A program made the translations under genes and the position numbers. Under the pieces are notes generated by a model. The model made no database searches. It was not told the origin of the DNA and was given only the letters and a program-made list of their open reading frames with translations. A stretch of 64,000 nucleotides of DNA from a bacterium (lineage in GTDB: Bacteria; Patescibacteriota; Andersenbacteria; UBA10190; CAIZMI01), in NCBI GenBank assembly GCA_030647555.1, contig JAUSJG010000007.1, positions 36,169-100,168 on the forward strand, in the 5' to 3' direction. Below are positions 3,172-44,948 of the stretch, piece by piece (the stretch's first letter is position 1; every line of letters begins with the position of its first letter).

Positions 3172-4015
3172 CGTATATTTTGCGCCAAATATTTCGTCGA
3201 ATCCGAAAAACTTCCCCCAATACTTCAATATATGCGCCAGCCGACACGCGACTATTTGGATCGTTTAGCCAAACTACCGGTGCTTCTTTCATCTTAAAAC
3301 CAAGCCGTTGTGCCACCGCCAAAATTTCAACGTCAAATCCCCAGCGATCGATAGTTAGACGAGGACAAATTTTTTCCACTGATGCGCCCGTAAACATCTT
3401 AAACCCACACTGCGTATCATGAATACCTCGTACGGCCATTATCTGAATCAAGAGGTTCCCCATCTGTCCCGCTAACTCCTTATACCAAGCTTGATGAATT
3501 TCTACATCCGAATCACTCAAGTGACGCGAGCCAATCACAATATCATATCCCTGTTCCTTAAAATATGGGAAAAAACGGTCAACATGATCGATGGAAGTAG
3601 AATTATCCGCATCCATAAAGACTCGATATTTACCAACAGCTTGCATTAAGCCATATCGAACGGCGTAGCCCTTGCCGTGATTCTTCGCGTCAGGATACTG
3701 GACAGCCTCAAATTTCTGAATTCCTTTTATCGCACCGGCCTGCACTTGCGTCTTGGTGGCAAAATCACGCACCACATCACTTGTTTTGTCTTTTGAACCA
3801 TCGTCTACCACCAATATCTCGGATGAATAATTCTGCTTTTGCAAAAACGCAACAACACTCTTTAGTGTTTCCGGGAGTCGTTTTTCCTCGTTATAAGCGG
3901 GAATGATGACGGAGAGGTAGGTGGTAGCTTGTTTTTCCACCGGGTTTGATGTTTCAGACATGGCTAGATTATAACATGACTTTCGATTGACATAAAATGC
4001 CGAAAAAATTATCAA
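3146..4015 (-). CDS. Family 2 glycosyltransferase (dolichol-P-sugar/polyprenol-P glycosyltransferase-like)
   Basis: 289 aa. The N-terminal VIIPAYNEE...VVDDGSKD motifs are typical of GT2. Confidence 0.8.
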   Translation of the reverse strand: MIIFSAFYVNRKSCYNLAMSETSNPVEKQATTYLSVIIPAYNEEKRLPETLKSVVAFLQKQNYSSEILVVDDGSKDKTSDVVRDFATKTQVQAGAIKGIQKFEAVQYPDAKNHGKGYAVRYGLMQAVGKYRVFMDADNSTSIDHVDRFFPYFKEQGYDIVIGSRHLSDSDVEIHQAWYKELAGQMGNLLIQIMAVRGIHDTQCGFKMFTGASVEKICPRLTIDRWGFDVEILAVAQRLGFKMKEAPVVWLNDPNSRVSAGAYIEVLGEVFRIRRNIWRKIYDDPFHQVI

Positions 4016-4133
4016 TTTTCAATGGCCAATTTTCAATTAATGTTCAAACTCCAATTTTCAAACAACGACGTCGTAATTGATAATTGAGCCATTGATAATT
4101 AATTGAAAATTGGGAATTGATAATTGAAAATTA
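3998..4133. repeat. Family B long imperfect palindrome. Arms are built from TCAATT/TTGATAATT units around a central CAAACAACGACGTCG.
   Basis: The left arm is the approximate reverse complement of the right arm around the centre near 4068. The same architecture and central motif recur at 12442, 15770, 17748, 18862, 34030, 36683 and 42233. Confidence 0.8.
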
Positions 4134-4532
4134 TCTTTTCCTGTTTTTCTCCAACCAAGTCTCCAGCAACAACCGCGCCGCTTCCGCGTCCGGACTCTTC
4201 ATCCCTTTCATTCGTGCCGCCATCGCGCTGGATTTGGTGGAAAAACGTTCGTCCACAAATTCTAATGGCAACCCGAGGTTATTCGTTAACTCATTGCCAA
4301 AAGACCGCACAATCGATGCCTGCGGGCCCTCTTGGCCGTCTAAAGACAACGGTAAACCCAGCAAAATTCTTTCCACGCGTTCATTGTTTGCAACCCGCCG
4401 GATTGCCTCAAAACATTCATTACGCGGTTCGGCCGGAACGGTTTTTAATGCCAACGCAAATTTTTGGTCGGTATCGGTAATCGCCAACCCCACCCGCACC
4501 GACCCGTAATCAATTGCCAGTACTGTACCCAT
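4131..4532 (-). CDS. ruvX: Putative Holliday junction resolvase / pre-16S rRNA nuclease YqgF (RuvX)
   Basis: 133 aa. N-terminal LAIDYGSVRVGLAI with a conserved acidic residue, and the length, match YqgF. Confidence 0.75.
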   Translation of the reverse strand: MGTVLAIDYGSVRVGLAITDTDQKFALALKTVPAEPRNECFEAIRRVANNERVERILLGLPLSLDGQEGPQASIVRSFGNELTNNLGLPLEFVDERFSTKSSAMAARMKGMKSPDAEAARLLLETWLEKNRKR

Positions 4533-5314
4533 TATTTTGTCGTTGTGAGCACGCGCGTTCCGTCTTTCGTAATCGCGACAGTTACCTCTTCATGCGCGGA
4601 AAACTTCCCGTCTTCAGTCAATACTGTCCAACCGTCATCGGCCGTTACAATTTCTTTTTTACCCATATTCACCATTGGTTCAATGGCGATAACCGTACCG
4701 ATTGGCAATGAAACGCCTTGTCCTTTTCGGCCATAATTTGGCACGTTCGGCGCTTCATGAAGCGCAAAACCCACGCCGTGACCGACCATCTCGCGCACCA
4801 CCGAATAACCGGCTTTTTCCGCCACTTTCTGCACCGACGCGCCAATTTCACCCGTTGTAACATTTGGTTTAACCACGTCGATTGCGGCTTGAAGTGATTG
4901 CTTTGTCGTAGCAATTAAACTTTTCGACGCCGATGAAATTTTTCCCACCCCAACCGTCATTGCCGTATCCGTATAAAGTCCGTCGTAAAGACAACCAATA
5001 TCCAAACTGACAATGTCACCTTCTTCCAAAGGTTGATCATTAGGAATCCCGTGAACCACCGCGCTGTTTACCGAAACACACAAAGTTGCCGGGAAGGCTT
5101 CTACCGCTTCTCCCGACGGAGAATAATTTTTAAAAGCCGGTTGTGCGCCTTTTTCCAAAAGTTTCTTTTCGGCCGTTTGATCTAATTCAATACCTGTGAT
5201 CCCAGGCTTTACCATTCCCGCCACTTCTTCCAAAACAGTACGCAAAATTTTTCCACCTTTAGCCATTCGCTCGATTTCTTCGGTGGTTTTTAATTTTATT
5301 TCTAATTTGTTCAT
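4532..5314 (-). CDS. map: Methionine aminopeptidase type I
   Basis: 260 aa. VVHGIP, the DIGC...YDGLY region and GHGVG are MAP1 motifs. It sits downstream of adk as in spc/alpha operons. Confidence 0.9.
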   Translation of the reverse strand: MNKLEIKLKTTEEIERMAKGGKILRTVLEEVAGMVKPGITGIELDQTAEKKLLEKGAQPAFKNYSPSGEAVEAFPATLCVSVNSAVVHGIPNDQPLEEGDIVSLDIGCLYDGLYTDTAMTVGVGKISSASKSLIATTKQSLQAAIDVVKPNVTTGEIGASVQKVAEKAGYSVVREMVGHGVGFALHEAPNVPNYGRKGQGVSLPIGTVIAIEPMVNMGKKEIVTADDGWTVLTEDGKFSAHEEVTVAITKDGTRVLTTTK

Positions 5315-5985
5315 AATCCCAGTCTTTTTCTTATCACTTTTTCCACATCTTCAGCAACTTCCGTGATTGGGCGAGCACCATCAATATGCTCACTTAAACC
5401 AAGACTATCAAGATAATTGATTACCGGCTGAGTGCGATATTTGAATTCCTCCCAGCGATTTTCCATTGCTTCCGGAACATCGTCGACACGCTTCACCAAC
5501 TGAGCACCGCATTTTTGACATTTTTCTGTTCCAACTATCGCGGGCGTATTACATTTTTCACAAACCATTCTTACCAACAGACGCTCGCGCGCATTCATAA
5601 TCGGTATATCCAAACAAATTGCCAAAATTTTTCCAACATGGTCTTTACCCAATTCAGCCAAAAGCGCTTCTACTTCATACAAAGTCCTGGGCGATCCATC
5701 AAACACAACCCCGTTTCCGCGAGCAAGAATCTCCTTCGTTTTTCCAACAACAATTTCAACCACAATTGGCGGAGGGGCCAAGGTGCCGGCATCAATTATT
5801 GCCGTGATCATTTTAGCAACCTCGGTCGACTCTGTTCGCATCGAACGCAAAATTTTCCCGGTTTCAATTCTTTCAAAACCGAGGCGTTCCTGAACAAAAC
5901 GCGCCTGGGTTCCCTTTCCGGACCCCGGTGCGCCCATGAACATAATTACTCCTTTACCTTTTTTGGAATTTTCCATCGCGCCCAT
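5311..5985 (-). CDS. adk: Adenylate kinase (long form with zinc-binding lid)
   Basis: GAPGSGKGTQA P-loop. The CEKC...CQKCG lid has four cysteines. Confidence 0.9.
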   Translation of the reverse strand: MGAMENSKKGKGVIMFMGAPGSGKGTQARFVQERLGFERIETGKILRSMRTESTEVAKMITAIIDAGTLAPPPIVVEIVVGKTKEILARGNGVVFDGSPRTLYEVEALLAELGKDHVGKILAICLDIPIMNARERLLVRMVCEKCNTPAIVGTEKCQKCGAQLVKRVDDVPEAMENRWEEFKYRTQPVINYLDSLGLSEHIDGARPITEVAEDVEKVIRKRLGL

Positions 5986-6029: not shown

Positions 6030-6155
6030 AACCCCAAATCCCAATGTCCAATGTCCAACAAAATCACAAATCCAAAAACCCAAAACGACGTGTTTTTGGG
6101 ATTTAGATAATTTAGGATTTTGTTGAGGTTTGGGGTTTGAAAATTGGGATTTTCA
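6030..6155. repeat. Family C long imperfect palindrome. Arms are built from CCCAAA/TTTGGG units around a centre AAAACGACGTGTTTT.
   Basis: Left arm CCCCAAATCCCAATGTCCAA..., right arm ...TTGGGGTTTGAAAATTGGGATTTT. Related copies are at 9526 and 16676. Confidence 0.75.
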
Positions 6156-6158: not shown

Positions 6159-7460
6159 TCAGCTGTTCTCGTACTCGCGCATCGTCAACTGCGCGTCGAT
6201 TTGTTTCATTGTTTCAAGAATAACGGACACGACGATGAGCAAGCCTGTGCCACCAACCGTCAAAGTGCTCATTTTTGTAAAACCCTGTGCGACTAATGGC
6301 AAGACCGCGATTATCCCTAGGAAAAGCGCGCCGGCTAATGTAATTCTGTTTGTAACGGCCTTCAGGTAAAGCATGGTCGCGTGACCAGGACGAATCCCCG
6401 GCACGAACCCGCCCTGTTTCTGCAAGTGTTCGGCAATACGTTTCGGATCAAATGTAACGGCGGTATAAAAATAAGTAAACACAACAACAAGCAAGAAGTA
6501 GAAAATGCCATAGAAGGCACTGTTATTAAACAAACCCACAACACTGCGAGAAATTTCCGCGATTATGGTAATTGAGGATGTTGCGAAAAATTGTGCGATC
6601 ACTCCTGGAAATAAAAGAAGTGACAAAGCGAAAATAATTGGAATGACGCCGGCCTGATTAACACGCAACGGCAAGTGAGTTGATACCCCACCCATTAATT
6701 TTCCACCACGAACGCGTTTGGCATAACTGACCGGAATATTACGCTGGGCTTCTGTCACAAAAACGACACCGGCCGTAACTACAACGGCAATCAGCAAAAA
6801 CACCAAATAAACCGGAATTTTGGTCGGATCATACAATGAAACGGTTTGCTGTAACGATTGTGGAAGTTGCGCGATAATACCGACAAAAATAATCAACGAA
6901 GCACCATTGCCCAGTCCTTGTTCGGTAATAATTTCACCAAGCCACATCAGCAATATTGACCCAGCCGTGACGGTAATAATTGTGATGGCCATTTCGAGTG
7001 GCGTGAAAGTGAGTTGTGCGCCAACACCGCCGGAAGCGGACCCACGCTGTAAAATTGTCAGGAAACCAAAAGCCTGCACGATACCAAGCGGTACCGCCAT
7101 AAGCCTAGTATACATTTGAATTTTTTGACGACCGGCTTCCCCTTCTTCCCGTTGTAACTGTTCAAACTTTGGAATAATAACAGTGAGCAACTGCATTACA
7201 ATCGAAGCCGTGATGTACGGACCAACTCCAAGCATTGCCAAAGATAGTCTCGACAAACCGCCTCCGGAAAAGATGTTCAAGAGACCGATAAGATTATTTC
7301 CTTCAAAGAAACGCCTTAAGCTTTCCGCCTCAATCCCGGGAACTGGGATATGAGAAGCGATACGAAAAACCACTAACAGCCCAATCATGATTAAAAGTTT
7401 TTTTCTAAGATCGGGAGCCTTGAATAAGGCACTAAAACGGGCAAATGGTTGCATACCCAA
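6159..7460 (-). CDS. secY: Preprotein translocase subunit SecY
   Basis: 433 aa. Polytopic and shows SecY family similarity across its whole length. It sits between rplO and adk. Confidence 0.95.
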   Translation of the reverse strand: MGMQPFARFSALFKAPDLRKKLLIMIGLLVVFRIASHIPVPGIEAESLRRFFEGNNLIGLLNIFSGGGLSRLSLAMLGVGPYITASIVMQLLTVIIPKFEQLQREEGEAGRQKIQMYTRLMAVPLGIVQAFGFLTILQRGSASGGVGAQLTFTPLEMAITIITVTAGSILLMWLGEIITEQGLGNGASLIIFVGIIAQLPQSLQQTVSLYDPTKIPVYLVFLLIAVVVTAGVVFVTEAQRNIPVSYAKRVRGGKLMGGVSTHLPLRVNQAGVIPIIFALSLLLFPGVIAQFFATSSITIIAEISRSVVGLFNNSAFYGIFYFLLVVVFTYFYTAVTFDPKRIAEHLQKQGGFVPGIRPGHATMLYLKAVTNRITLAGALFLGIIAVLPLVAQGFTKMSTLTVGGTGLLIVVSVILETMKQIDAQLTMREYENS

Positions 7461-7496: not shown

Positions 7497-7600
7497 TTGA
7501 GGTCGGACATCGCGCTAGGGTCGGACTTTGTGAAAGGTCCGACCCTCATTGGTAGCGCCGTAGACCAATCAAGGTCGGACCCCTTCGCGGAGTCCGACCT
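7497..7600. repeat. REP-like hairpin cluster of the form RGGTCGGAC-N9-11-GTCCGACCY; at least three hairpins
   Basis: Example hairpins are AGGGTCGGACtttgtgaaaGGTCCGACCCT and AAGGTCGGACcccttcgcggaGTCCGACCTT, both with perfect 10-bp stems. The same motif recurs at 40805-40900, 50745-50960, 60596-60700 and 61722-61800. Confidence 0.7.
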
Positions 7601-8916: not shown

Positions 8917-9444
8917 CTATTTCGTCTTAGTGTAAAATCCGTCGCACTTGTTGGCGGCCCAGAATCCACGCTTTGCGGCTTTTGCTTCTTTTTCAAATTT
9001 CATAAATGTTTTTTGGTAGAACGATGGCTTCTTGGCATTAACGGCTTTTGCGTAACCGTCGCGAATCATCATTGTGCCAAAAACGCGCCCGTCTTCCATC
9101 ACGACATTGCGAAGCAAGTTGCCGTTCTTGTCTTCATTGCCCTGTGTTTCGTCCTCAATTAATGTCACAAACGCGCTTTCGGCGATTTTCTTGGCGCGTA
9201 CCCACGAGTCTTTGCTGTAGCACTGCGCTTTCGTCGTTGCCGTCAGGCGATCCGGCGCGTCCATCCCGATTACCTTCACGAATTTGGAATCGCCATTTAT
9301 GGAAACCTGCAGCCAATCACCGCTCAACACCGACAACACTTTGACATGTTCGTCCTTGTGCGGTGCCGCCACAACCGGCATAATTGGAAAAAGGCTCGCC
9401 ACAAATGAGAGTGAAACGACACTTGCTGCTAGCTTCTTAAACAT
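8917..9444 (-). CDS. Secreted thermonuclease (staphylococcal nuclease/SNase-like)
   Basis: A signal-peptide-like N-terminus, MFKKLAASVVSLSFVASLFPIMPVVAA, is followed by an SNase fold whose segments are VIGMDAPD, GNLLRNVV and KRGFWA. The start is set at the ATG at 9444. Confidence 0.7.
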   Translation of the reverse strand: MFKKLAASVVSLSFVASLFPIMPVVAAPHKDEHVKVLSVLSGDWLQVSINGDSKFVKVIGMDAPDRLTATTKAQCYSKDSWVRAKKIAESAFVTLIEDETQGNEDKNGNLLRNVVMEDGRVFGTMMIRDGYAKAVNAKKPSFYQKTFMKFEKEAKAAKRGFWAANKCDGFYTKTK

Positions 9445-9525
9445 AGTTTGTGTTTGATTAATAATATTACCTGTAAATTGTAGCACAAACCGAAAGACGG
9501 TACCTGTTGATAAAGCAGTACTTTT

Positions 9526-9680
9526 AAATTCCAAACCCCAATGACCCAGCCGTCGCTAAAGCTATGGCCGGCAGGCCAATGTCCAACAAAATCCTAAACA
9601 CACTAAAACCCAAAGACGCGTTTTGGGATTTAGGAAATTATGGTTTTGTTGGGATTTGGGGTTTGGACATTGGGATTTTT
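9526..9680. repeat. Family C long imperfect palindrome
   Basis: Arms are CCAAACCCCAATGACCCAG...CCAATGTCCAACAAAATCCTAAACAC and ...GGGATTTAGGAAATTATGGTTTTGTTGGGATTTGGGGTTTGGACATTGGG, around CAAAGACGCGTTTTGGG. Confidence 0.75.
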
Positions 9681-9740
9681 GAGGCCATTTGTCCCCGTCC
9701 AAATCTCCCCTCGCCCCTCTTTGAAAAAGAGGGGAACACT

Positions 9741-10181: not shown

Positions 10182-10182
10182 T

Positions 10183-10707
10183 TTATTCTCCTTTCTTTAC
10201 TTCCGGTTGAGCTTCTACTACTTCGGTTACTTTAGCTTTTTTCAACGGTCGAGCTTGCATCGCGGTAAGGGCCATTATTGTCGCTTTTACGACATTCAAG
10301 CTGTTGTGGGAACCCATCATTTTGCTGGACAAATCACGTAAACCGCCAAGCAAGGCAACCGAACGAATAGGGCCACCGGCAATAATACCGGAACCTTGCG
10401 GAGCCGGTTTTAAGAAAACTGTGGCGCCACGAAAGGTGCGAGTAATTTCATGCGGGATTGTTCCGCCTTCAATAATGAAGCGAACGACGTTTTTCTTAGC
10501 CGATTCTTGCGCTTTGCTAATTGCGTTTTGCACATCCGCGCCCTTGGAAACACCCAAACCGACATTACCGCGCTTGTCGCCAATAATTACCGTGGCGCGA
10601 AAACGGAAACGACGTCCACCTTTAACCACGCGCGTCACACGACGTAATTCAACTACGCGATGGTCAAATTGGTCGTCACTTTGTCCTGGAAATTTTTGGA
10701 ATGCCAT
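10183..10707 (-). CDS. rpsE: 30S ribosomal protein S5
   Basis: Starts MAFQKF... and contains RVVKGGRRFRFRATVIIGD. The start is set at the ATG at 10705-10707. The longer TTG-initiated ORF reads into the repeat element. Confidence 0.9.
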   Translation of the reverse strand: MAFQKFPGQSDDQFDHRVVELRRVTRVVKGGRRFRFRATVIIGDKRGNVGLGVSKGADVQNAISKAQESAKKNVVRFIIEGGTIPHEITRTFRGATVFLKPAPQGSGIIAGGPIRSVALLGGLRDLSSKMMGSHNSLNVVKATIMALTAMQARPLKKAKVTEVVEAQPEVKKGE

Positions 10708-12365: not shown

Positions 12366-12441
12366 AATATAGAATATTGTTAGATTAAACTATTTTTATC
12401 AGCAAATCCTTCACCGGACACATTTGGGGTTTTTATCAACT

Positions 12442-12612
12442 CCCTAATTTTCAATTTACAATTATCAATTTTCAATGAATTATCAATGCTTCCAGCCTTC
12501 GCCAAGGCTTCGGCCGGCAAGAAATTTTCAAACAACGACGCTACGCTCCGTTTTGATAATTTAAATAATTGAAAATTAATTGCAAAATTGATCATTGATA
12601 ATTGATAATTTG
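12442..12612. repeat. Family B long imperfect palindrome with an extra GC-rich insert (GCTTCCAGCCTTCGCCAAGGCTTCGGCCGG)
   Basis: Left arm CCCTAATTTTCAATTTACAATTATCAATTTTCAATGAATTATCAAT; centre CAAACAACGACGCTACG; right arm TTTGATAATTTAAATAATTGAAAATTAATTGCAAAATTGATCATTGATAATTGATAATT. Confidence 0.8.
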
Positions 12613-12689
12613 CAAACGTTAATTTACGAATTTCCCCCGTTGCTTTGTTTGAGATTAATGATTTCATAAGAGTATATAAGTATGTTCTA

Positions 12690-15686: not shown

Positions 15687-15769
15687 AATATTAGAAAATT
15701 TCAGCTAAATTGCGTTTATCAAACATTTCTGTAATCGAAGTTAAAATGTTTCGCAATATGCCACTAATT

Positions 15770-15905
15770 TTCAATTTACAATTATCAATTTTCAATGAAT
15801 TATCAATTCTTAAATTATCAAACAACGACGCGACGTTAATTTTTGAAAATTTAGATAATTGAAAATTAATTGCAAAATTGATAATTGATAATTGATAATT
15901 TACAA
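15770..15905. repeat. Family B long imperfect palindrome
   Basis: Arms AATTTTCAATTTACAATTATCAATTTTCAATGAATTATCAATTCTTAAATTATC and ATTGAAAATTAATTGCAAAATTGATAATTGATAATTGATAATT, around CAAACAACGACGCGACG. Confidence 0.8.
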
Positions 15906-15961
15906 AACTCATTTTCTTATCCGAATCATTTTGTGACATAAGCATCTTCATAAATTCATTA

Positions 15962-16603: not shown

Positions 16604-16675
16604 AAAGTATATTTTAAATAAAGCTATTTTCCAGAAATAAATTACTGCTATTTTCCTTTCCTGATTCAGTTACGC

Positions 16676-16810
16676 CCAAAAATCTCAAACTCCAAATCCC
16701 AAATCCCAAAAACTTACTCGACGCAAAACCCGCGACGCGATTCAATGCGTTTTTGGACATTTGGTCATTGAGATTTTTTTGGAAATTGGTCATTGGAAAT
16801 TGGAAATTAT
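16676..16810. repeat. Family C long imperfect palindrome
   Basis: Arms CTCAAACTCCAAATCCCAAATCCCAAAAAC and TTTTGGACATTTGGTCATTGAGATTTTTTTGGAAATTGGTCATTGGAAATTGG, around GACGCAAAACCCGCGACGCG. Confidence 0.75.
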
Positions 16811-16813
16811 CGT

Positions 16814-17676: not shown

Positions 17677-17747
17677 GTTAGGAAACCTTTAACGAAAAAT
17701 TAAGCAACTTACAACCATCTTCATTCAAACGATTATTCTCCTTAACA

Positions 17748-17900
17748 AGCCCCCAAATGTTCAATTTCCAATTACCAATTTTCAATAAATTATCAATGAT
17801 TAAATTATCAAATAACGCGCTCACGTCGTAGTATTTTGAAAATTCGAACTTTTGAAAATTATTTGAAAATTGCAAAATTGATAATTGAAAATTACCAATT
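17748..17900. repeat. Family B long imperfect palindrome
   Basis: Arms CCCCAAATGTTCAATTTCCAATTACCAATTTTCAATAAATTATCAATG... and ...TTTGAAAATTATTTGAAAATTGCAAAATTGATAATTGAAAATTACCAATT. Confidence 0.8.
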
Positions 17901-17953
17901 CTTCTCAAGCTCTTCATTGTTTTATCCACAATAGATGGTTTCATAATTTACTT

Positions 17954-18790: not shown

Positions 18791-18861
18791 ATCAGGAAGC
18801 TTTTAGGTTACAACTTAACTTATTCACATTTAATTTATTGATAACAACTACTGAATCTACA

Positions 18862-18985
18862 AAATCCCTAATTACCAATTTCCAATTACCAATTTCCAAT
18901 GAATGCCCAATTCCAAAATTTCCAAAAGGGACTACGCCAACATGCTTTGAAAATTTAGACATTTGAAAATTTGCAGTGGTATCAA
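18862..18985. repeat. Family B-like long imperfect palindrome of the CCAATT/AATTGG type
   Basis: Arms CCTAATTACCAATTTCCAATTACCAATTTCCAATGAATGCCCAATTCCAAAATTTCC and GCTTTGAAAATTTAGACATTTGAAAATTTGCAGTGG. Confidence 0.65.
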
Positions 18986-19018
18986 TATTCATTTTTGGGC
19001 AAATATTTTTCATAAAAG

Positions 19019-20920: not shown

Positions 20921-21062
20921 ATGAATTTTTAATTTGAAATTTGAAATTTTTAATCAATTTGAAATAAACTAATATCTTAATTTGAAAAACGCGTTTTTAT
21001 TTATTTCAAATTTGTGTATTAAAAATTGATTTCAAATTAAAAATTTCAAATTTCAAATTCGC
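20921..21062. repeat. Family D long imperfect palindrome. Arms are TTTGAAAT/ATTTCAAA units around GAAAAACGCGTTTTT.
   Basis: Near-identical arms occur at 41308-41451 and 44813-44948; all three share AATTTTTAATTTGAAATTTGAAATTTTTAATCAATTTGAAATA. Confidence 0.8.
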
Positions 21063-33957: not shown

Positions 33958-34029
33958 GGGGGGAGTATATTTAAATTAAACTATTTTCACAAGTTAATTT
34001 TACGCCGGATGGTAATGTGTTTTTAAGAA

Positions 34030-34122
34030 GCCCCCAAATTTTCAATTTCCAATTACCAATTTTCAAATAATTATCAATTCCAAAATTTTCAAACAACGAC
34101 GCGACGTTCCGTTTTGATAATT
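34030..34122. repeat. Family B element, partial: left arm and centre only; the right arm is replaced by a GC-rich hairpin GCCCGCCACATCGGCGGG
   Basis: CCCCAAATTTTCAATTTCCAATTACCAATTTTCAAATAATTATCAATTCCAAAATTTTCAAACAACGACGCGACGTTCCGTTTTGATAATT. Confidence 0.7.
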
Positions 34123-34226
34123 GCCCGCCACATCGGCGGGTCCGCCTGCTGGCGGAATAATTAGCAAGCTTGCTGATACCGGCCGAAATTCTATTTTTTA
34201 GAAATAATTTCATAGGTAAGAAATAT

Positions 34227-34664: not shown

Positions 34665-34865
34665 TATAAATAGAGGATTCTTCGCAAAATCAAAAAGAAA
34701 TTGCGTGTCATAGGAACTTTACGGAAAGAACGAATTGCCGTCAAGAGGCCATTAACGTGAATGCTGAATAACGAATGATGAATGATGATGCGACGTGGAC
34801 AAAACATGCTTATTGGCCACCTGTCATCCTTTCCTCACAACAACTATCGATCAGAAACTCCGTCC

Positions 34866-36623: not shown

Positions 36624-36682
36624 AGTTTGATAAAAACTTGTGTTTTAAATTTTCAATCTCGTTCCAATGATTTTAACAACTA

Positions 36683-36810
36683 AATTATCAATTTTCAATG
36701 ACCAATTTTCAATTAATGATCAATTCTTAAATTATCAAAAGACGGCGTCATAATTGATAATTGAGCCCTTGATAATTAATTGAAAATTGGTCATTGAAAA
36801 TTGATAATTT
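36683..36810. repeat. Family B long imperfect palindrome
   Basis: Arms TAAATTATCAATTTTCAATGACCAATTTTCAATTAATGATCAATTCTTAAATTATC and ATTGATAATTGAGCCCTTGATAATTAATTGAAAATTGGTCATTGAAAATTGATAATTT, around AAAAGACGGCGTCAT. Confidence 0.8.
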
Positions 36811-36889
36811 TGTCGTGGGACTACTTTTCTTGCCTAAATCACGTCTCCGTGTTAAATTCCTTCAGTATTTAATTCTATTCCCCATCCCT

Positions 36890-37136: not shown

Positions 37137-37904
37137 TCATGCCGGACTAACTTCCGACGACTTTGTTATTTTCTTTTCAATTAATTCCGGAAATCGATTG
37201 TTTGTAATATCAAAAACTGTAATCTCAAGGAAATTAAGCTTAAGATGATTAACAATATCGTACTTACGCTTGACGTTATTGTCATATTTTTTGTTTGCCC
37301 CCTTCAAGCCAAAATATTCAATGAACAACCCATGATCTGGCAAATAAAAATCTGTATTAAGCTTTGATGACGGATAGTTTATATTTCGTTCATGTTTAAT
37401 TTTGCGATCATATAACCAGTCATCGATAATTTTTTCAGTAAAAGAATCACACCAGTGCCCATCTTTTGCAAGCATACGCTTCGTAAACTTTTCCGGATTT
37501 GGAACAAACCCTGCGGCAACAATTGCGTTATTCCAACTACCGAAAAACTTCTTACAAATTCTAAATTTGTTGAGTTCATATTTCAGCGGAATACATCCAT
37601 TTTTCTCATGAAATTCCTTGATCAGGCGCAAGATATCAGTCTTGTTGAATTTAATTTTGAACTGGTATTTTCTCAAACGAATTCTTGCTTTTCTTTTTTC
37701 TTCCAGTGTCCACTTATGAGCCTTTAATTTATGCCGTTCTTCAATCGCGATTTTCTGATCAAATGAAACATTAATTCCCTTTGTCCACAAAAATGCAGAA
37801 CCATTGCTGATTTTTAGCTTATGAGCAATTTCACGGTGCGTGTAACCTTCTGTTCGCAACCGCCTGGCACTATCTTTGGTGATAATTGTGTACATTTGCC
37901 CCAA
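37137..37904 (-). CDS. HTH plus homing-endonuclease-associated repeat (HARE) plus DUF559/Vsr-like PD-(D/E)XK endonuclease domain protein
   Basis: An N-terminal HTH, LRTEGYTHREIAHKLKIS. A HARE motif in the middle, GCIPLKYELNKF...FGSWNNAIVAAGF. A C-terminal DFYLPDHGLFIEYFG...YD, like DUF559 restriction-endonuclease-fold proteins. Confidence 0.6.
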   Translation of the reverse strand: MGQMYTIITKDSARRLRTEGYTHREIAHKLKISNGSAFLWTKGINVSFDQKIAIEERHKLKAHKWTLEEKRKARIRLRKYQFKIKFNKTDILRLIKEFHEKNGCIPLKYELNKFRICKKFFGSWNNAIVAAGFVPNPEKFTKRMLAKDGHWCDSFTEKIIDDWLYDRKIKHERNINYPSSKLNTDFYLPDHGLFIEYFGLKGANKKYDNNVKRKYDIVNHLKLNFLEITVFDITNNRFPELIEKKITKSSEVSPA

Positions 37905-40804: not shown

Positions 40805-40900
40805 TACCAATATTGACAAGTAGTATACGGGTCGGACTGCTGTAGCGGTCCGACCCGCACTGGTTCGTCGCCACCAACCAAGAGGTCGGACCGCTCGGCA
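40805..40900. repeat. REP-like GGTCGGAC/GTCCGACC hairpin pair
   Basis: GGGTCGGACtgctgtagcgGTCCGACCC and AGGTCGGACcgctcggcaGTCCGACCT. Confidence 0.7.
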
Positions 40901-41140
40901 GTCCGACCTTATAATAGCGTTTTCATTGACAAAATAAGTAGAATAATATATACTTTTTCCTCATTGGTTGAGACCTGGTACATTTCAAAACTCATATCAT
41001 AATCTTGACAATCGTTTTCACGATTGTTCTCCCGCATGGGGGTACCCAATATTCTTTGTATTGTTCGTTTATAAATTTGGTGCCTCCATGCGGGGGGTTC
41101 TTTTTTTGCGGGGGGCTACCTGCAACAGAGGAGCCTGAAT

Positions 41141-41307: not shown

Positions 41308-41451
41308 TCTAAATTTTTAATTTGAAATTTGAAATTTTTAATCAATTTGAAATAAATAAATATTTTAATAACGAATTACGTCCATCGCGGTATTTCAAAT
41401 TTTTATATTTCAAATTGATTTCAAATTTCAAATTAAAAATTTCAAATTCGA
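41308..41451. repeat. Family D long imperfect palindrome
   Basis: AATTTTTAATTTGAAATTTGAAATTTTTAATCAATTTGAAATAAATAAA ... TTTCAAATTGATTTCAAATTTCAAATTAAAAATTTCAAATTCG. Confidence 0.8.
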
Positions 41452-41511: not shown

Positions 41512-42114
41512 CTATTTCTTTTTGGGCGTATCCCACTCCGCGTCATGCAAAACTTTATCCATGACGTTTTCGTAATCATAGATTTCAGCTTTCGTGAACC
41601 AAAGCGCGATTTCACGTTTCGCTTCATCCGGTTCCGATGACGCGTGAATCAGATTGCGAACCGAACGGCCTTCCATATTAGCCATTTCAATCGTGTCAAT
41701 TGTTAAATCACCACGGATACTGCCAACATCCGCCGAAATAGGATTAGTACTGCCGACCAACTGGCGCACATTACTAATCGCGTGAGTTCCCTGCCAAACC
41801 ATCGCGACGACAGGACCGATTGCCAAATAGCGACCAAGCTGATTACGAATCCACTGACCGATTTGAATCGGTGTGCGACTATCCGACAAACCATTTTTCT
41901 CCATTCCGGCTTTGGCTTTTTCACCCAACGCCGTTAAATACGCAACATCGTTTGTGTAATGCTTTTCCAAAATTTCTTTACTCGGCCAAACCATCTTCAT
42001 TCCCACAAGCTTGAGACCGGCTTTTTCAAAGCGACCGATGACATCTCCAATCAAGCCACGCTGTACTCCATCCGGCTTAATCAAAACCAACGTCTGCTGA
42101 CGCTTGATCTCCAT
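41512..42114 (-). CDS. ndk: Nucleoside diphosphate kinase, with an internal insertion
   Basis: Starts MEIKRQQTLVLIKPDGVQRGLIGDVIGRFE. The catalytic His lies in the NLIHASS segment. The start is set at the ATG at 42114. Confidence 0.8.
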   Translation of the reverse strand: MEIKRQQTLVLIKPDGVQRGLIGDVIGRFEKAGLKLVGMKMVWPSKEILEKHYTNDVAYLTALGEKAKAGMEKNGLSDSRTPIQIGQWIRNQLGRYLAIGPVVAMVWQGTHAISNVRQLVGSTNPISADVGSIRGDLTIDTIEMANMEGRSVRNLIHASSEPDEAKREIALWFTKAEIYDYENVMDKVLHDAEWDTPKKK

Positions 42115-42232
42115 TATTCTCGAATCAACCTCCGACTTTTTTTGAGATTTAGGCATATGAGTAACAATATAGGGGAAAACCCATTTATTGACAAATGAGT
42201 AATACTTGAAACCAAATGTTTATAAATACCTC

Positions 42233-42360
42233 CAAAATTACCAATTATCAATGACCAATTATCAATTAATTTTCAAGATTCAATTTTCAATTTGATACCG
42301 TAATTGATAATTTATGAATTGATAATTAATTGAAAATTGGGGATTGATAATTGAAAATTA
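42233..42360. repeat. Family B long imperfect palindrome
   Basis: CCAAAATTACCAATTATCAATGACCAATTATCAATTAATTTTCAAGATTCAATTTTCAATTTGATACCG TAATTGATAATTTATGAATTGATAATTAATTGAAAATTGGGGATTGATAATTGAAAATT. Confidence 0.8.
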
Positions 42361-43221
42361 GAGTTCGCATTCTTTCTCGCACCTCAATTTTACAGACCCA
42401 GACCCCACATTACTTTCCAGAGTGATCGTTCCCATCCGGTCTGTTCTCTCAACTTTTACTCCGCCAAGTCTTTTTAATGTTAATGGATTCGGATGCCCAT
42501 ACATATTTTTTACCCCCACTGAAATAATCGCCATCTTGGGTTTTACAAAATCCAAAAACGTGGTGCTTGAAGATGTTTTACTGCCGTGATGTCCAACCTT
42601 CAAAATATCAGCAGTCAAAACACTGCCATATTTTTTCGCTAAATAATTTTCCGTTGGTGCTTCTATGTCTCCGGTGAGTAATAACGAAACCCCCGGAACA
42701 ATTAATCTTGCAACTACCGAGGCATTATTGATGTTTGTTTTGCTCCATGTGAGTAATTTTTCATCCGGCGAAAGAATGTCTAATTTAATATCATTATAAA
42801 TAATAGTTTGCCCCGCCTCGGCGAAAACTATCGGAATTTTTTTATCCATAACGCTCTGGAGAAATATCCGATAATTTTTTTTATTCTCGATAATTTTTGG
42901 CAATACAACTGTTCCAACCTCATATTTTTTTACAACATATAATAATCCACCGAGATGATCTTGATCCGGGTGCGTTAGAACAACCACGTCAATTTTACGG
43001 TCCCACGCCGGACGATTTTCACCAAGACGTTGCAAAACGGTTAAGTCGGGTCCACCATCTACTAAAACATCAAAATTCCCCTGACGCATAAGAATCGCGT
43101 CACCTTGACCAACATTCATAAAACTCACAAAAACTTTGCCATCGCGAGAATTTTGCAACCACAGAGCCATACCAAGAACCAACGTCCCCACTATTATCAA
43201 AAATATCGCTCTGCGCTTCAT
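42358..43221 (-). CDS. ComEC/Rec2 C-terminal metallo-beta-lactamase domain protein
   Basis: HPDQDHLGG is an MBL HxHxDH motif. There is an N-terminal TM/signal segment. Overlaps the upstream ComEC TM ORF by 4 nt. Confidence 0.75.
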   Translation of the reverse strand: MKRRAIFLIIVGTLVLGMALWLQNSRDGKVFVSFMNVGQGDAILMRQGNFDVLVDGGPDLTVLQRLGENRPAWDRKIDVVVLTHPDQDHLGGLLYVVKKYEVGTVVLPKIIENKKNYRIFLQSVMDKKIPIVFAEAGQTIIYNDIKLDILSPDEKLLTWSKTNINNASVVARLIVPGVSLLLTGDIEAPTENYLAKKYGSVLTADILKVGHHGSKTSSSTTFLDFVKPKMAIISVGVKNMYGHPNPLTLKRLGGVKVERTDRMGTITLESNVGSGSVKLRCEKECEL

Positions 43222-44798
43222 TTTTTCGCCATATCACTTAGTTGTTCAGTGCGGACACTATTTTTGTTCACACTGAACAATTCCCGTATCGGCCAAAATT
43301 GACGCCTTGTTGAACGAGACAAAATAATCGATAGAACAAATAAAAGAAAATAAAAGAGCACAAGATATCCGGCCTTAAATTCTACCAATTGAATATTGGC
43401 ACCGGGGAGTTTTGCCGAAAACTCGACTAGCCCTAAAAATATATCAGTAAGCGCGTGAGTGATAAAAAACAGAAAACCTTGAAGGAACGGTATCCAGCCA
43501 AAAATTAAAACCGCTACCCCCAAAAGCATCAAGGGTGGATAAAGCGGTGCCGCAAATACATTAGCAAGCAACCCAATAAGCGAAACCCGGCCAAATGAAT
43601 AGGCGATAATCGGTGTTGTTGTAAACATCGCGCACGCGGTCATTAAAAAAATATTTTGCAAACCAAAAGATTTCGCGCGAAAAGTAAAACGTTGGCCAAT
43701 GGGATAAAAAACAATTAATCCCCACATTGCCAGCGCGGATAATTGAAAACCCAAATCGGCCAACAAAATTCGCGGATTCGCCATTAGCATTAACACGACA
43801 GTCACTAAAAGAATCCGAACGCCATGGGATTTTCTTCCAGATGCCATCGCAATATAAACCGCCGCAACCATAATAACCGACCGAATACCGCTCGGAGGAA
43901 AATCAACAAGCGCGATAAATAGCGTGGCCAAAACCGCGGTAACAATCATCGCGTAAATTCGCGGTACGCCAATCATGGTTGTAATAAAAAATATCGCGAT
44001 GGCCAACATACTCACGTGTTGCCCGGAAATAGCCACCAAGTGCGCTAAACCGGAATTGGAAAAGTCTGTACGCAAACTTTTTGGAACATCCCGCATATAT
44101 CCCAACAATGTCGCCGAAAAAAGCCCCGCGTCCGGTTCCGGCAACAAAACAAAAAACTTCTCTCGTAAATCATTCCTTATCGTTGTAAGTTTATTTTCCG
44201 CGCCACTTTGCATCACTTGTATTCGCGGATTAAGCATCGTGGCAAAAATGCCATAACGGGCGTAATACCGACGCGGGTCAAAGTGTCCCGCGCTTAAAGA
44301 AAAATTGTCCGGTATGGCAATTTTTCCGATAAATTGAATATCATCTCCCGTTTGGATACTCTCCGAGACCGCTGTTTTTATTTCAAGCACGCCGGGCAAT
44401 ACATTACTTGTATTTTGAATTTTTACATTTTCAACTTGTACTTTTAGTGATAATCCGTCTTCTTCCACACTCTGAACACGGCCTTCATATTTTGAGATAT
44501 TTCCGGCAACATTTTTCCAACTTGCCATGTTTTGCACATCACTCCTGACAGCCAAATCACTAAACACCAAACCCATAAGCAAAGAACCGCTAAAAATTAA
44601 GCCATATCGTACCGCCTGATACCGTCCAAAAACACAGAAAATAAAACATACAGAAAATAACAAATAGAAAACATTCGCCACAACAGGAGAAAAAGTGCTT
44701 CCAAGTATTACCCCCGCGATATACCCAACGCAGAAATACGGAATTATTTGAGGATACATAGTTTTATGATAGTACGTTTTTTGGAACAGGGTGAACAC
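43218..44798 (-). CDS. ComEC/Rec2 transmembrane competence-channel domain protein
   Basis: 526 aa, polytopic. Has the ComEC competence domain (LSGQHVSML-type region) with DUF4131-like N-terminal TM helices. Confidence 0.7.
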   Translation of the reverse strand: MFTLFQKTYYHKTMYPQIIPYFCVGYIAGVILGSTFSPVVANVFYLLFSVCFIFCVFGRYQAVRYGLIFSGSLLMGLVFSDLAVRSDVQNMASWKNVAGNISKYEGRVQSVEEDGLSLKVQVENVKIQNTSNVLPGVLEIKTAVSESIQTGDDIQFIGKIAIPDNFSLSAGHFDPRRYYARYGIFATMLNPRIQVMQSGAENKLTTIRNDLREKFFVLLPEPDAGLFSATLLGYMRDVPKSLRTDFSNSGLAHLVAISGQHVSMLAIAIFFITTMIGVPRIYAMIVTAVLATLFIALVDFPPSGIRSVIMVAAVYIAMASGRKSHGVRILLVTVVLMLMANPRILLADLGFQLSALAMWGLIVFYPIGQRFTFRAKSFGLQNIFLMTACAMFTTTPIIAYSFGRVSLIGLLANVFAAPLYPPLMLLGVAVLIFGWIPFLQGFLFFITHALTDIFLGLVEFSAKLPGANIQLVEFKAGYLVLFYFLLFVLSIILSRSTRRQFWPIRELFSVNKNSVRTEQLSDMAKK

Positions 44799-44812
44799 AG
44801 AACTGCCATAGC

Positions 44813-44948
44813 TAATTTTTAATTTGAAATTTGAAATTTTTAATCAATTTGAAATATCGTAATAGCTTAATTGAAAAACGCGCGATTATTTCAAATTTAA
44901 ATATTAAAAATTGATTTCAAATTGTAAATTTCAAATTTCAAATTCGAG
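44813..44948. repeat. Family D long imperfect palindrome
   Basis: AATTTTTAATTTGAAATTTGAAATTTTTAATCAATTTGAAATATCG ... ATTTCAAATTTAAATATTAAAAATTGATTTCAAATTGTAAATTTCAAATTTCAAATTCG. Confidence 0.8.

Follow-up and report, generated by a model that had tools for sequence, protein, structure and literature searches.

Palindromes with arms of seven-nucleotide units

The window, the 64,000-nucleotide stretch of DNA analysed here, comes from a candidate-phyla-radiation (CPR) bacterium whose most conserved operons are colonised by repeats that are probably selfish. Its ribosomal protein genes and their neighbours (assignments confirmed via translation and Pfam) are interspersed with repeats of three families, B, C and D (Table), in addition to those of a family A. 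A sequence-only reading had described 14 sites as palindromes of the whole element with arms made of short tandem units, and both inverted-repeat search and folding agree at 14/14: these are long AT-rich palindromes, far above chance expectation, which form whole-element hairpins of 110-176 nt with long, stable stems of 40-60 bp. Fold z-scores against shuffles range from -2.3 to -14.4, the exception being copy 18862 (z = +0.3), and copy 34030, rightly called partial, retains only half of its palindrome. The arms are reverse-complementary and multi-copy: with no more than one mismatch allowed, 16 occurrences of the family B arm motif AATTAYCAATTTTCAA were counted, against 0.04 expected.

Tandem Repeats Finder resolves every B, C and D arm into a period-7 array. 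The units are AATTTTC/TAATTGA in family B, CCAATGT and AAATCCC / TTGGGAT and TTGGAAA in family C, and AATTTGA/ATTTCAA in family D; their sequence thus differs between families, while the period of 7 is strict in all. Family D has the reverse design, its G-containing arm coming first, and 3/3 copies carry an identical 33-nt arm although they lie 20 kb apart. In family B we distinguish the operon unit B1 from B2, a shorter, near-perfect subtype to which the non-operon copies at 3998, 36683 and 42233 belong. Operon junction units reach beyond the palindrome to occupy the whole junction gap (210-324 nt) and have a conserved TTATGAAA start, a AGTTTAATTTAA-type end and non-palindromic 5' and 3' extensions of ~60-70 nt, so the description of the elements as something other than a pair of terminal inverted repeats fits the palindrome cores but not these larger units. 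Similarly, the conserved GC centre ascribed to family B, CAAACAACGACG, is exact in four of the eight copies (4059, 12529, 15819 and 34090) and variant or missing in the others.

The orientation of B1 relative to transcription is identical in 10/10 copies; one non-operon B2 copy, in the relative L205, is inverted. Operon B/C hairpins fold more stably from the sense strand than from the antisense strand and contain more G·U pairs in the sense form (28 versus 10), an excess that could stem from strand-biased mutation and not from RNA-level selection. Families B and C grade into each other: copy 18862 is intermediate, and at the L15/SNase junction C takes the place of B when sister genomes are compared. 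The families are built alike, as palindromes of the whole element whose arms consist of short units, and act as a single superfamily, which supports the grouping first proposed. With family A counted, ~14 junctions of the str/S10/spc region hold an insert, close to the ~13 claimed initially.

Table. Family B, C and D copies in the window, with their mini-ORFs, neighbouring genes and state in relatives
Feature	Position	Strand	Details
B2, near-perfect 126-nt palindrome, RuvX (4131-4532) / GT2 glycosyltransferase (3146-4015)	4007..4132	.	dG -41 kcal/mol, z -5.9; no through-ORF
C palindrome, SecY (6159-7460) / adenylate kinase (5311-5985)	6030..6150	.	z -7.3; no start-to-stop ORF found across the gap (exception inside operon)
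C palindrome, L15 (9741-10181) / SNase-like gene (8917-9534)	9530..9685	.	B2 copy at this junction in sister genomes
Nested GC mini-element in preceding copy	~9546-9575		
S14/S8 insert, B1	12366..12689	-	palindrome 12446-12610; empty in L001; orthologous in L081, indels 27 and 30 nt
S14/S8 mini-ORF	12380-12667	-	95 aa; 89% of gap, shuffle P < 0.0005
Nested 30-nt GC mini-element in S14/S8 insert	~12492-12521		
S3/L16 insert, B1	15687..15961	-	palindrome 15766-15905; empty in L001; orthologous in L081
S3/L16 mini-ORF	15691-15951	-	95% of gap; stop 4 nt ahead of L16 ATG
L22/S3 insert, C	16604..16813	-	palindrome 16676-16810; empty in L001; orthologous in L083, zero indels
L22/S3 mini-ORF	16614-16793	-	59 aa; 86% of gap, shuffle P 0.004
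L2/S19 insert, B1	17677..17953	-	palindrome 17755-17900; empty in L001; orthologous in L083
L2/S19 mini-ORF	17678-17944	-	88 aa; 96% of gap; stop 1 nt ahead of S19 ATG
L23/L2 insert, B/C intermediate	18791..19018	-	degenerate hairpin (z +0.3); empty in L001; gap 9 nt in L083
L23/L2 mini-ORF	18792-19022	-	97% of gap; ATG overlaps L23 stop codon
D palindrome upstream of L3 (20101-20706)	20923..21060	.	z -6.1
S12/S7 insert, B1	33958..34226	-	GC-rich mini-hairpins in place of left arm; gap 9 nt in L206, 3 nt in L207
S12/S7 mini-ORF	33971-34213	-	90% of gap
B2, most perfect palindrome, HNH-repeat protein (37137-37904) / M50 peptidase (35982-36623)	36676..36816	.	arms 63 nt, 87% complementary; dG -64 kcal/mol, z -14.4; no through-ORF
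D palindrome ~20 nt downstream of terminator-like hairpin following NDK	41311..41448	.	position occupied by B2 copy in L205
B2, metallo-beta-lactamase-fold gene (42358-43221) / promoter-like site of NDK (41512-42156)	42236..42359	.	promoter-like TTGTCA-17-TATATT downstream; present in L205, absent in L207; no through-ORF
D palindrome, FtsZ terminator-like hairpin (44964-44991) / ComEC start (44798)	44814..44944	.	short B-like copy at this junction in L205

Insertions and open frames between coupled genes

Comparison with relatives indicates that the B, C and D elements are lineage-specific insertions. L001, a sister species with an L2 protein 94% identical, has tight empty junctions throughout the S10/spc operon (10/10 operon sites), and in L206 and L207 no insert occupies S12/S7 or several further junctions. 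The JGI relative has inserts in common with the window at S3/L16, S14/S8, L2/S19 and L22/S3 and holds private ones at L5/S14, S8/L6, L36/S13, S11/S4 and pilB/pilC. It has neither the L23/L2 insert nor any family A copy. At four sites the same junction is occupied by a different family in sister genomes, and orthologous copies are no more similar than paralogous ones. Family A has terminal inverted repeats and a clean 4-bp duplication; no target-site duplication was visible for B2 or D, and the ends of B1 cannot be placed sharply, since its spacer differs along its entire length from that of the empty site. The 64-kb window yielded no mobilising enzyme, and neither it nor close relatives yielded a gene for an rRNA intervening-sequence (IVS) protein.

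That inserts are tolerated between translationally coupled genes had been proposed from the outset, and the comparison bears this out; it also reveals the presence/absence polymorphism that had been suggested as a check. The open reading frames that overlap them had, however, been dismissed as spurious, and this does not hold. In 16/17 operon inserts a sense ORF fills 85-97% of the gap (shuffle P <= 0.013 each), whereas antisense coverage is 0-36%. These mini-ORFs start at or just past the upstream stop codon and end 1-15 nt ahead of the next ATG or overlap the start codon; the pilB/pilC insert is a called gene of 91 aa, with a 4-nt overlap onto the start of pilC. Two junctions depart from this pattern: at L29/S17 the ORF of the family A insert spans just 39% of the gap, and at SecY/Adk the family C copy has no start-to-stop ORF. 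Such frames lie on the gene strand only and at coupled junctions only: no comparable ORF was found at non-operon junctions (n=8), and copies outside operons, between terminator and promoter, are without one. A Shine-Dalgarno (SD)-like motif precedes only 5/31 genes.

The mini-ORFs stay open across ~30% sequence divergence. Indels inside them measure 27, 30, 9, 3, 6 and 6 nt or compensate one another (5+4), and the two 1-nt indels both fall outside the ORF. Under neutral simulation the probability of a frame still being open is 0.003-0.005 for B and 0.06-0.08 for C, and ~1e-6 jointly over three orthologous pairs. The peptides behave very differently. In the ribosomal genes on either side, identity is 89-100% at codon positions 1 and 2 versus 55-71% at position 3, whereas the mini-ORFs diverge about equally at all three positions; their orthologues share ~50% amino-acid identity, against 90-98% for neighbouring genes, and non-synonymous changes exceed synonymous ones 4-7 fold. 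The arms are the best-conserved part of orthologous inserts, and divergence in the 3' third is saturated. Together, these results show that the open frame is under selection and the peptide is not, the latter evolving almost neutrally.

The window's arm recurs in >120 metagenome contigs from very distant lineages, where it again takes the form of mini-ORFs that separate ribosomal genes, and also lies within a 16S rRNA gene (contig L099) and beside 23S-rRNA-IVS-protein genes (PF05635/TIGR02436), which it flanks in at least six contigs; many metagenome copies consist of one G-arm immediately ahead of a start codon. This metagenome sample was drawn with a pattern from the translatable arm variant, so that its ORF statistics are biased and lack a proper null. 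L2 identity is as low as 43-47% between organisms that have a 24-nt arm exactly in common. In contigs with an L2 that distant from the window's, mini-ORFs of 39-54 codons again lie between ribosomal genes, with ATGA or TAATG overlaps and an SD within a small hairpin. The occupied junctions vary between contigs, and the mini-ORFs are an independent recurrence. In these lineages the inserts fold only weakly while the relay signals persist; melting of the hairpin is therefore not enough to account for the ORF.

A proposed translational relay and its alternatives

To explain these results we propose, with somewhat better than even confidence, that families B, C and D together with A are non-autonomous selfish hairpin repeats of one superfamily, gained in this lineage through insertion or replacement, and that the operon copies survive via a translational relay. 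The landing site would set the form of the element. In untranslated spacers, from a terminator to the next promoter, bare near-perfect palindromes (B2, D) could persist; between the coupled genes of a mostly SD-less organism, only copies carrying a relay would. This relay would consist of an ATG at or just past the upstream stop, a single frame that continues unbroken across the two arms and the two flanks, and a stop codon that falls 1-15 nt ahead of the next start codon or overlaps it. Having finished the upstream gene, ribosomes would start again on the mini-ORF, open the hairpin during its translation, keep the transcript covered and stop beside the downstream start codon; thus, essential downstream genes would still be expressed. 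The peptide would be a by-product, and the mini-ORFs are most likely the means by which the insert is tolerated. What the sequences show is insertion polymorphism, hairpin potential, ORF geometry, selection for an open frame and recurrence in distant lineages; translation of the mini-ORFs, their coupling function, the way in which the elements move and any cleavage by RNase III are inferred.

The hairpins could instead benefit the host, either as places where RNase III or RNase E processes the RNA or as attenuators or stabilisers of mRNA; they would split the long r-protein transcript into units or tune product stoichiometry, and the mini-ORF would be incidental. ERIC, Correia and REP sequences act like this in other bacteria. 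The stems would be ideal RNase III substrates, the sense-strand stability with its extra G·U pairs and the conservation of the arms fit such a role, and processing of known repeats offers precedents (PMC10969869, PMC3184786, PMC4990558). This reading, compatible with the relay, is nevertheless unlikely: a sister species with near-identical genes lacks inserts at every junction, so they are not needed, families are interchangeable at the same site, and in distant lineages the hairpins have decayed while the relay signals were kept. It also leaves unexplained the frame open through non-palindromic flanks, the frame-preserving indels and the absence of the ORF from non-operon copies. Those same frames might be read as genuine small-protein genes of ~60-95 aa (PGAP hypothetical proteins), palindromic by chance, given their conserved starts (MK...) and ends (...SLI*), their calling by PGAP and JGI, their recognition as a protein family (E as low as 1e-33) and the conserved arm-encoded segments NYQLSIINF and LKIDNCKLKI. 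Yet these segments coincide with nucleotide-level palindrome arms, and the flat codon-position pattern, the excess of non-synonymous change, the low identity beside well-conserved neighbours and the saturated 3' third all oppose a selected peptide. Moreover, families A, C and a GC-rich 'TTACAGG' type encode unrelated peptides at the same positions, no Pfam domain was found in the mini-ORFs, and the sister species has none of them, which makes this reading the least credible to us.

Two other possibilities concern the arrays and their spread. The 7-nt arrays might be binding platforms, the palindrome being secondary: as RNA, they would bind OB-fold proteins (cold-shock proteins or ribosomal protein S1, one per heptamer) and act as AU-rich translation enhancers upstream of SD-less starts; as DNA, they would bind a nucleoid or regulatory protein. 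The strict period despite differing units, the SD-poor lineage and the single G-arms ahead of start codons speak for it, as does the precedent of TAACTGA heptamer repeats toward SD-less starts and of CspB, one protein per heptamer (PMC4679880). However, ~60-70 nt of unrelated sequence separate the window's B1 arms from the next ATG, the corresponding genes of sister species are without the arrays, and two-armed symmetry, a maintained ORF and copies downstream of terminators go unexplained; we hold it to be very unlikely. Highly improbable, too, is that the elements are immobile and spread locally via 7-nt slippage, hairpin-templated repair, gene conversion or illegitimate recombination, with no element-specific enzyme. 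It would suit the lack of target-site duplications in B, C and D and of a transposase in the window, the close similarity of adjacent L5/S14, S14/S8 and S8/L6 units in L081 (leader TAGAACATNCTTATATAC included), the possible microhomology of S14 and S8 (both end TTGGTAA, and their starts share TATG), and orthologous copies no closer than paralogous ones. Against it stand the 24-nt arm shared by organisms with such divergent L2 proteins, copies on different contigs and in unrelated operons (pilB/pilC, S11/S4, inside 16S rRNA), the identical arms of the distant D copies, and the clean duplication and inverted repeats of family A.

Relation to known repeats and intervening sequences

The relay-carrying selfish hairpins that we favour have partial counterparts elsewhere. 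TAACTGA heptamer repeats of Beggiatoaceae and Cyanobacteria are also 7-nt unit arrays, mostly intergenic and toward SD-less starts, patchy across distant phyla and of a mechanism that is not known (PMC4679880), but they are direct, not palindromic, with stop codons in all three forward frames, whereas the window elements are two-armed and their units avoid stops in the used frame. REPINs, RAYT-mobilised REP doublets, are likewise ~100-nt whole-element hairpins from two inverted halves, extragenic and with within-genome family structure (PMC3116915); the window elements, however, have no GTAG or CGTC tag and are AT-rich, not GC-rich, no RAYT gene was found in the window, and REPINs avoid translated regions. 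ERIC, Correia (CREE) and YPAL MITEs are imperfect palindromes of ~100-170 bp, often in operons, co-transcribed and able to change mRNA processing, some with ORFs (PMC3184786, PMC10969869), but they have defined terminal inverted repeats and TA duplications, sometimes IHF sites, and neither colonisation of r-protein operons nor a coupling-maintained ORF is reported for them. Essential regions are usually 'repeat deserts' (PMC3184786).

The first reading had pointed to Rickettsia palindromic elements, aptly in spirit, and to Correia elements, than which IVSs are closer. The Rickettsia elements are 100-150 bp palindromic repeats of a reduced genome, without known transposase or target-site duplication, and one open frame makes them tolerated in translated regions with the peptide as passenger (PMC10969869, PMC3184786). 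They insert in frame within host genes and join the protein, whereas the window's operon copies are stand-alone mini-ORFs, each with a start and a stop codon of its own, chained between genes; the phylum differs, the window arms are 7-nt arrays and the sequences appear unrelated.

In architecture, the window elements may be the gene-less counterpart of bacterial rRNA IVSs (Coxiella burnetii and Leptospira 23S; S23p/IVP, PF05635). They differ in location, the window copies occupying mRNA operons and intergenic spacers instead of rRNA, and in content, these copies carrying no IVP gene but, in operons, a maintained mini-ORF; nor do they have sequence similarity to classical IVSs. Both, however, are selfish hairpins with terminal inverted repeats as a long stem, and their patchy distribution suggests horizontal spread. 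The Coxiella IVS is bounded by terminal inverted repeats, its stem region contains heptameric tandem repeats, its loop holds an S23p ORF, and RNase III excises it (PMC4990558); CPR rRNA genes contain IVP ORFs as well as many short ORF-less insertions (PMC11270868). Elsewhere in CPR the same arms make up the stem of cassettes with a 23S-rRNA-IVS-protein gene, a four-helix-bundle protein as optional loop cargo, and are also present inside rRNA genes. Thus, on these sequence comparisons, the rRNA IVS appears to be a nearer known relative than the Correia elements.

Heptad palindromes in two ribosomal gene blocks

Two blocks of ribosomal genes lie on the window's minus strand, a str block and an S10/spc-type cluster that is followed further along by SecY-Adk-MAP; an L30 gene is absent from these blocks. 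Among named organisms the best matches come from Patescibacteria: L2 reaches at most 57% identity, to Kuenenbacteria and others, and NDK 57-60%, to Andersenbacteria. Exact-sequence lookup of the window's L2, of one mini-ORF (a sense-strand ORF filling an insert between coupled genes) and of P0007 gave no match. S10 is cut off from the rest of its operon, because an island of ~6.9 kb intervenes between S10 and L3. This island is bracketed by two direct duplicates of the S10 gene 3' end, ~175 nt long and identical at most aligned positions, and it contains a GH3-family gene, two radical-SAM/B12-binding genes and several unknowns.

At every site where the sequence-only reading had placed a member of families B, C or D, we find a long AT-rich palindrome. 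The cores are predicted to form single hairpins of 110-176 nt, 2.3-14.4 standard deviations below shuffles, except in the degenerate L23/L2 copy. The arms are indeed built of short tandem units: all B, C and D arms are period-7 arrays by Tandem Repeats Finder, and this is the feature that unifies them. The conserved GC centre holds in part, being exact in four B copies and in those only. We count 16 occurrences of the B arm motif where 0.04 would be expected. B and C form a graded series with no sharp border, and D has the opposite arm order, with a 33-nt arm identical across all three copies. At operon junctions, self-comparison extends the repeated unit beyond the palindrome alone to nearly the entire 210-324 nt gap, and the units of B1 (the operon-junction subtype of B; B2 is the shorter, near-perfect non-operon subtype) have non-palindromic outer flanks.

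Smaller elements are nested within the AT-rich arms. A GC-rich mini-element of ~30 nt (CCAGCCTTCGCCAAGGCTTCGGCCGGCA) recurs in the window and in relatives; its copy at 12492 adds 30 nt in frame and is missing from the orthologous insert of a JGI metagenome relative, and one copy lies within a Type I R-M methylase/specificity gene. In relatives, small GC hairpins of other kinds, for instance CCGCCAGCTGGCGG, are nested likewise. The window also holds previously unlisted 7-nt-unit palindromes or arrays and, at other intergenic sites, a separate GC-rich palindrome set. The most perfect B2 palindrome neighbours an ORF with the homing-endonuclease-associated HNH_repeat domain (PF18780).

Coordinates of the gene blocks, elements and neighbouring features (L-numbers are relatives or metagenome contigs)
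Feature	Sequence	Coordinates	Strand	Detail
S10/spc-type cluster	window	20706 down to 9741	-	L3-L4-L23-L2-S19-L22-S3-L16-L29-S17-L14-L24-L5-S14-S8-L6-L18-S5-L15
str block	window	34664 down to 29513	-	S12-S7-EF-G-EF-Tu-S10
S10 3'-end duplicates	window	22624-22798, 29517-29691		
Family A elements	window	10704-10851, 11826-11972, 13517-13660, 14689-14828, 15119-15262		five sites
CCAGCCTTCGCCAAGGCTTCGGCCGGCA mini-element copies	window	12492-12521, 9546-9575, 55121-55150		
CCAGCCTTCGCCAAGGCTTCGGCCGGCA mini-element copies	L205	~5112, ~6014		
CCAGCCTTCGCCAAGGCTTCGGCCGGCA mini-element copy	L083	193		
Unlisted 7-nt-unit sites	window	46344-46439, 49880-49961, 62177-62257, 34758-34788		FtsA/FtsZ gap, gap upstream of YqeY gene, HisRS/HIT gap, upstream of S12; units GTATATG/ATATACT, TCATTAA, TGATTTA, TGAATGA
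GGTCGGAC(C)-type palindromes	window	2084-2133, 7500-7600, 50736-50945, 60871-61051, ~40880-41000		
HNH_repeat ORF	window	37137-37904		
Most perfect B2 palindrome	window	36676-36816		
Promoter-like site (example)	window	42166-42194		TTGTCA-N17-TATATT
KsgA homologue	L085	1482-2456	-	
LeuRS homologue	L105	327-2705	+	
16S rRNA gene	L099	1908-4203		

The inserts come and go between close relatives. The earlier suggestion to look for presence or absence polymorphism proved fruitful, as L001, the sister species and species representative, has empty junctions where the window carries inserts. L001 is close to the window (L2 94% identical, genes at 80-91% nucleotide identity), and in its copy of the operon the junctions measure 0-45 nt; against it, the window shows 139-300 extra bases at L23/L2, L2/S19, L22/S3, S3/L16 and S14/S8, as well as at the five family A sites. 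By this comparison, the operon inserts of the window are insertions. The relative from JGI metagenome 3300009537 shares inserts with the window at S3/L16, S14/S8, L2/S19 and L22/S3, is without the L23/L2 insert and any family A copy, and has inserts of its own at L5/S14, S8/L6, L36/S13, S11/S4 and pilB/pilC. In the more distant syntenic relatives L206 and L207 the S12/S7 gap is 3-9 nt; the NDK/epimerase and FtsZ/ComEC gaps of L206 are 27 and 55 nt, and the MBL/NDK gap of L207 is 70 nt. The claim of one superfamily of hairpins tolerated in coupled operons is thus upheld, as something mobile-like, by insertion polymorphism and shared architecture.

Four junctions carry a different family at the same place in sister genomes: NDK/epimerase (D in the window, B2 in the syntenic relative L205), FtsZ/ComEC (D, B-like in L205), L15/SNase (C, B2 in L001 and in L081 of the JGI relative) and S8/L6 (A, B1 in L081). 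Such swaps could come from reinsertion at hot spots or from element-for-element replacement. A pairwise identity matrix of the inserts, with all values at 74-89%, was uninformative between recent transposition and gene conversion.

Open frames through the inserts

The ORFs that overlap the inserts had been dismissed as spurious, a claim that is refuted by gap-filling ORFs on the gene strand and by a frame that is kept open. In operon inserts, the ORF starts 0-35 nt past the upstream stop codon or overlaps that stop, runs through both arms and both non-palindromic flanks, and stops 1-15 nt ahead of the next start codon. For 16 of the 17 operon inserts, it fills 85-97% of the gap (P <=0.013 each against shuffles, and <0.0005 for most B copies), the exception being the family A copy at L29/S17, with 39% only; on the antisense strand, coverage is only 0-36%. 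The pilB/pilC insert is a called gene of 91 aa with a 4-nt overlap with pilC. Eight junctions where an element sits in an untranslated spacer have no comparable ORF; there, the element lies between a terminator-like hairpin and the next gene's conserved promoter-like TTGTCA-N17-TATATT.

The arms themselves are readable. The C-containing arm has stop codons in no frame, and the G-containing arm has exactly one open frame, because its unit, read xxT-TGN, has T or G rather than A at the last position (TGT/TGG, not TGA). This design fits translation. B1 is oriented the same way relative to transcription in 10 of 10 copies; one non-operon B2 copy in L205 is flipped. Family A, the separate inserts of the same operons, has terminal inverted repeats (CCCAGTAATACAAC...) and a clean 4-bp duplication, TATG, made of T plus the downstream gene's start codon, where the empty L001 site has a single TATG. 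From the upstream ATG copy runs an ORF (MP(S/R)NTT...) whose TGA lies 10 nt ahead of the true start codon.

Is the peptide or the frame under selection? We compared three orthologous insert pairs and their flanking ribosomal genes. The flanking genes are 89-100% identical at codon positions 1 and 2 and 55-71% at position 3, with 4-21 non-synonymously differing codons per gene, a classical picture of purifying selection. The mini-ORFs diverge roughly equally at the three codon positions (68/71/58, 80/65/55 and 74/76/66% identity); their amino-acid identity is ~50%, and non-synonymous differences exceed synonymous ones 4-7 fold. Overall insert identity, 67-71%, is at the silent-site level, with arms nearly invariant and the 3' extension near saturation. 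Even so, all orthologous mini-ORF copies are still open: indels within the ORF are of 27, 30, 9, 3, 6 and 6 nt or a compensating 5+4, and 1-nt indels occur outside the ORF only. When neutral substitution was simulated at the observed divergence, the probability of remaining open was 0.003-0.005 for B and 0.06-0.08 for C, jointly ~1e-6 over the three pairs. Open frames, frame-preserving indels and flat divergence therefore indicate selection on translatability, not on the peptide. Support is good both for the geometry of the ORFs and for selection acting on the frame.

A proposed translational relay

Why would a palindrome be translated? This lineage is SD-poor, with an SD-like motif upstream of 5 of the 31 genes examined, and the empty L001 junctions are SD-less and very short. 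Because of these two properties, initiation by ribosomes that terminate just upstream is the natural expression route. An untranslated, structured insert of 200-300 nt would part the terminating ribosome from the next start codon and would leave a C-rich, G-poor arm exposed, possibly inviting Rho-dependent polarity on that RNA. Most likely, we infer, a selfish palindrome survives in essential operons because ribosomes translate it as a relay mini-ORF that keeps the genes coupled. A promoter function of the arms is rejected: sigma-70-like sites are not enriched (15 against 13 expected), and those promoter-like sites that are conserved fall outside the elements. The latter sites (TTGTCA-N17-TATATT) are conserved at orthologous positions in L205 and L207 and end ~10 nt ahead of the NDK and epimerase ATGs; the mRNAs of these two genes are suggested to be near-leaderless.

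The arrangement recurs far from the window. The arm pattern TTGAAAATTGNTAATTGKAAATTG has matches in more than 120 metagenome contigs at least; among the matches listed, arm-bearing contigs with ribosomal genes have L2 and S3 43-47% identical to the window's, and four contigs (L091, L106, L124 and L148) have mini-ORFs of 39-54 codons between ribosomal protein genes. Overlaps of the ATGA type mark their starts, and TAATG overlaps join stop and start; they occupy junctions that vary between the four contigs and in many cases end in a GCCTCCGAAGGAGGC mini-hairpin that holds the downstream gene's SD. The distant contigs have several arm families, including a GC-richer TTACAGG type, and their insert hairpins are weak (z -0.5 to -4.3, one -9.0). 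With hairpins weak and overlaps kept, it is therefore the relay, not the palindrome, that persists in old copies. Among the matches listed, the arm frame ends within 20 nt of a start, overlaps it or enters the gene in 26 of 34 unique matches with a same-strand downstream gene, a count that is supportive only, as the pattern is biased to the translatable arm variant.

Ribosomal protein operons are the textbook case in which translational coupling has frozen both the order and the spacing of genes. Essential regions are, as a rule, "repeat deserts" (PMC3184786). With inserts of 130-320 nt at more than 12 str/S10/spc junctions, differing between sister species, the operon thus tolerates far more than has been assumed, if the insert is translatable. 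This amounts to a natural experiment on what translational coupling requires, which seems to be only an open frame of almost any sequence with a stop within ~15 nt of the next start. CPR genome annotation is affected, since dozens of core-operon "hypothetical proteins" would be by-products of elements, and so is phylogenomics based on concatenated ribosomal protein blocks or on synteny. Compact relay modules may also provide parts for synthetic operons.

Relation to known elements

As in a classical MITE, the whole element is an inverted repeat, but direct repeats are absent from the flanks of the three D and the three B2 copies, and without target-site duplication for B2 or D we reject that assignment. 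Both ends of B1 read TATG, but T at -1 is the usual start-codon context in the lineage, and the copied unit also takes in the leader that precedes the first ATG, so "TATG...TATG" is not taken as proof of transposition. A clean duplication against the empty site is seen in family A alone. No parent IS or transposase with matching ends was found within the 64-kb window, nor a transposase or IVP gene (IVP, or S23p, is the protein encoded by some rRNA intervening sequences, IVSs) in the window or the relatives' loci. REP/REPIN-RAYT elements are rejected because the arm ends are AT-rich heptad units without a GTAG/CGTC tag and the window has no RAYT gene; it has no Y1-transposase domain either. Rfam 15 at the gathering threshold gave 0 matches over the entire window on both strands, which rules out a known structured RNA family. 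Comparison of the arms by eye with Fur boxes, DnaA boxes, IHF sites and TIGR arrays gave no supporting feature, and a phage vector is ruled out by 0 arm-motif matches in a viral contig collection. In the searchable literature we found no description of such translated palindromic inserts, and nothing specific on MITEs of CPR/Patescibacteria or on palindromic repeats in ribosomal operons.

The comparison with Rickettsia palindromic elements (RPEs) was apt for coexistence with translation (PMC10969869, PMC3184786). However, RPEs lie in frame inside host genes, whereas the window copies are stand-alone ORFs or untranslated. Two genes from other metagenomes touch on this point: a KsgA homologue has the arm motif in frame and is longer by a net ~11 aa inserted at a GC mini-hairpin, and a LeuRS homologue has C-arm-like and G-arm-like segments in place of variable regions flanking a conserved helix, with no added length. 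With net gain in the one and none in the other, RPE-like insertion within proteins is a partial case, and we do not rely on it.

The closest likeness is to IVSs. The 16S rRNA gene of contig L099 contains a palindrome with the same heptad arms and is 2,296 nt long against a 1,533-nt model, ~760 nt extra. Among the matches listed, arms directly flank 23S-rRNA-IVS-protein genes (PF05635, TIGR02436) in at least six contigs, either lying on both sides as identical arms (L101, L108/L114, L137, L175, L190) or next to the gene (L107, L173), and arm spacing around these genes is constant, 434-442 nt, in four loci. We take the PF05635 family to include also the DGR accessory protein Avd. A bolder reading, which we hold to be rather unlikely, is that of pan-CPR selfish palindromes with heptad units, evolutionarily continuous with IVSs and carrying a portable translational relay. 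Its parts would be a start codon of its own, a one-frame stop-free arm design, and a stop/start overlap or hairpin-held SD, and with it the elements would be able to settle in those operons of SD-poor bacteria that are most essential and most tightly coupled; the long-enigmatic four-helix-bundle IVS protein (PF05635) would be their mobilisation or maintenance factor. The findings themselves link three puzzles: IVSs with their orphan protein family, the short uncharacterised CPR rRNA insertions, and RPE-like translated repeats.

Classical IVSs, selfish hairpins that end in inverted repeats and in some cases hold an S23p ORF in the loop, are excised by RNase III, and the Coxiella IVS has heptameric tandem repeats inside (PMC4990558). 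A survey of CPR rRNA genes reported IVP ORFs together with many short, uncharacterised, ORF-less insertions (PMC11270868). The window copies, too, have terminal inverted repeats forming a long stem; they are without an IVP gene and, unlike IVSs, all lie between protein-coding genes rather than in rRNA (23S helix 25 or 45), where IVSs are cut from the transcript without re-ligation. Thus, the B, C and D copies of the window look like a cargo-less version of the IVS element type that lives outside rRNA.
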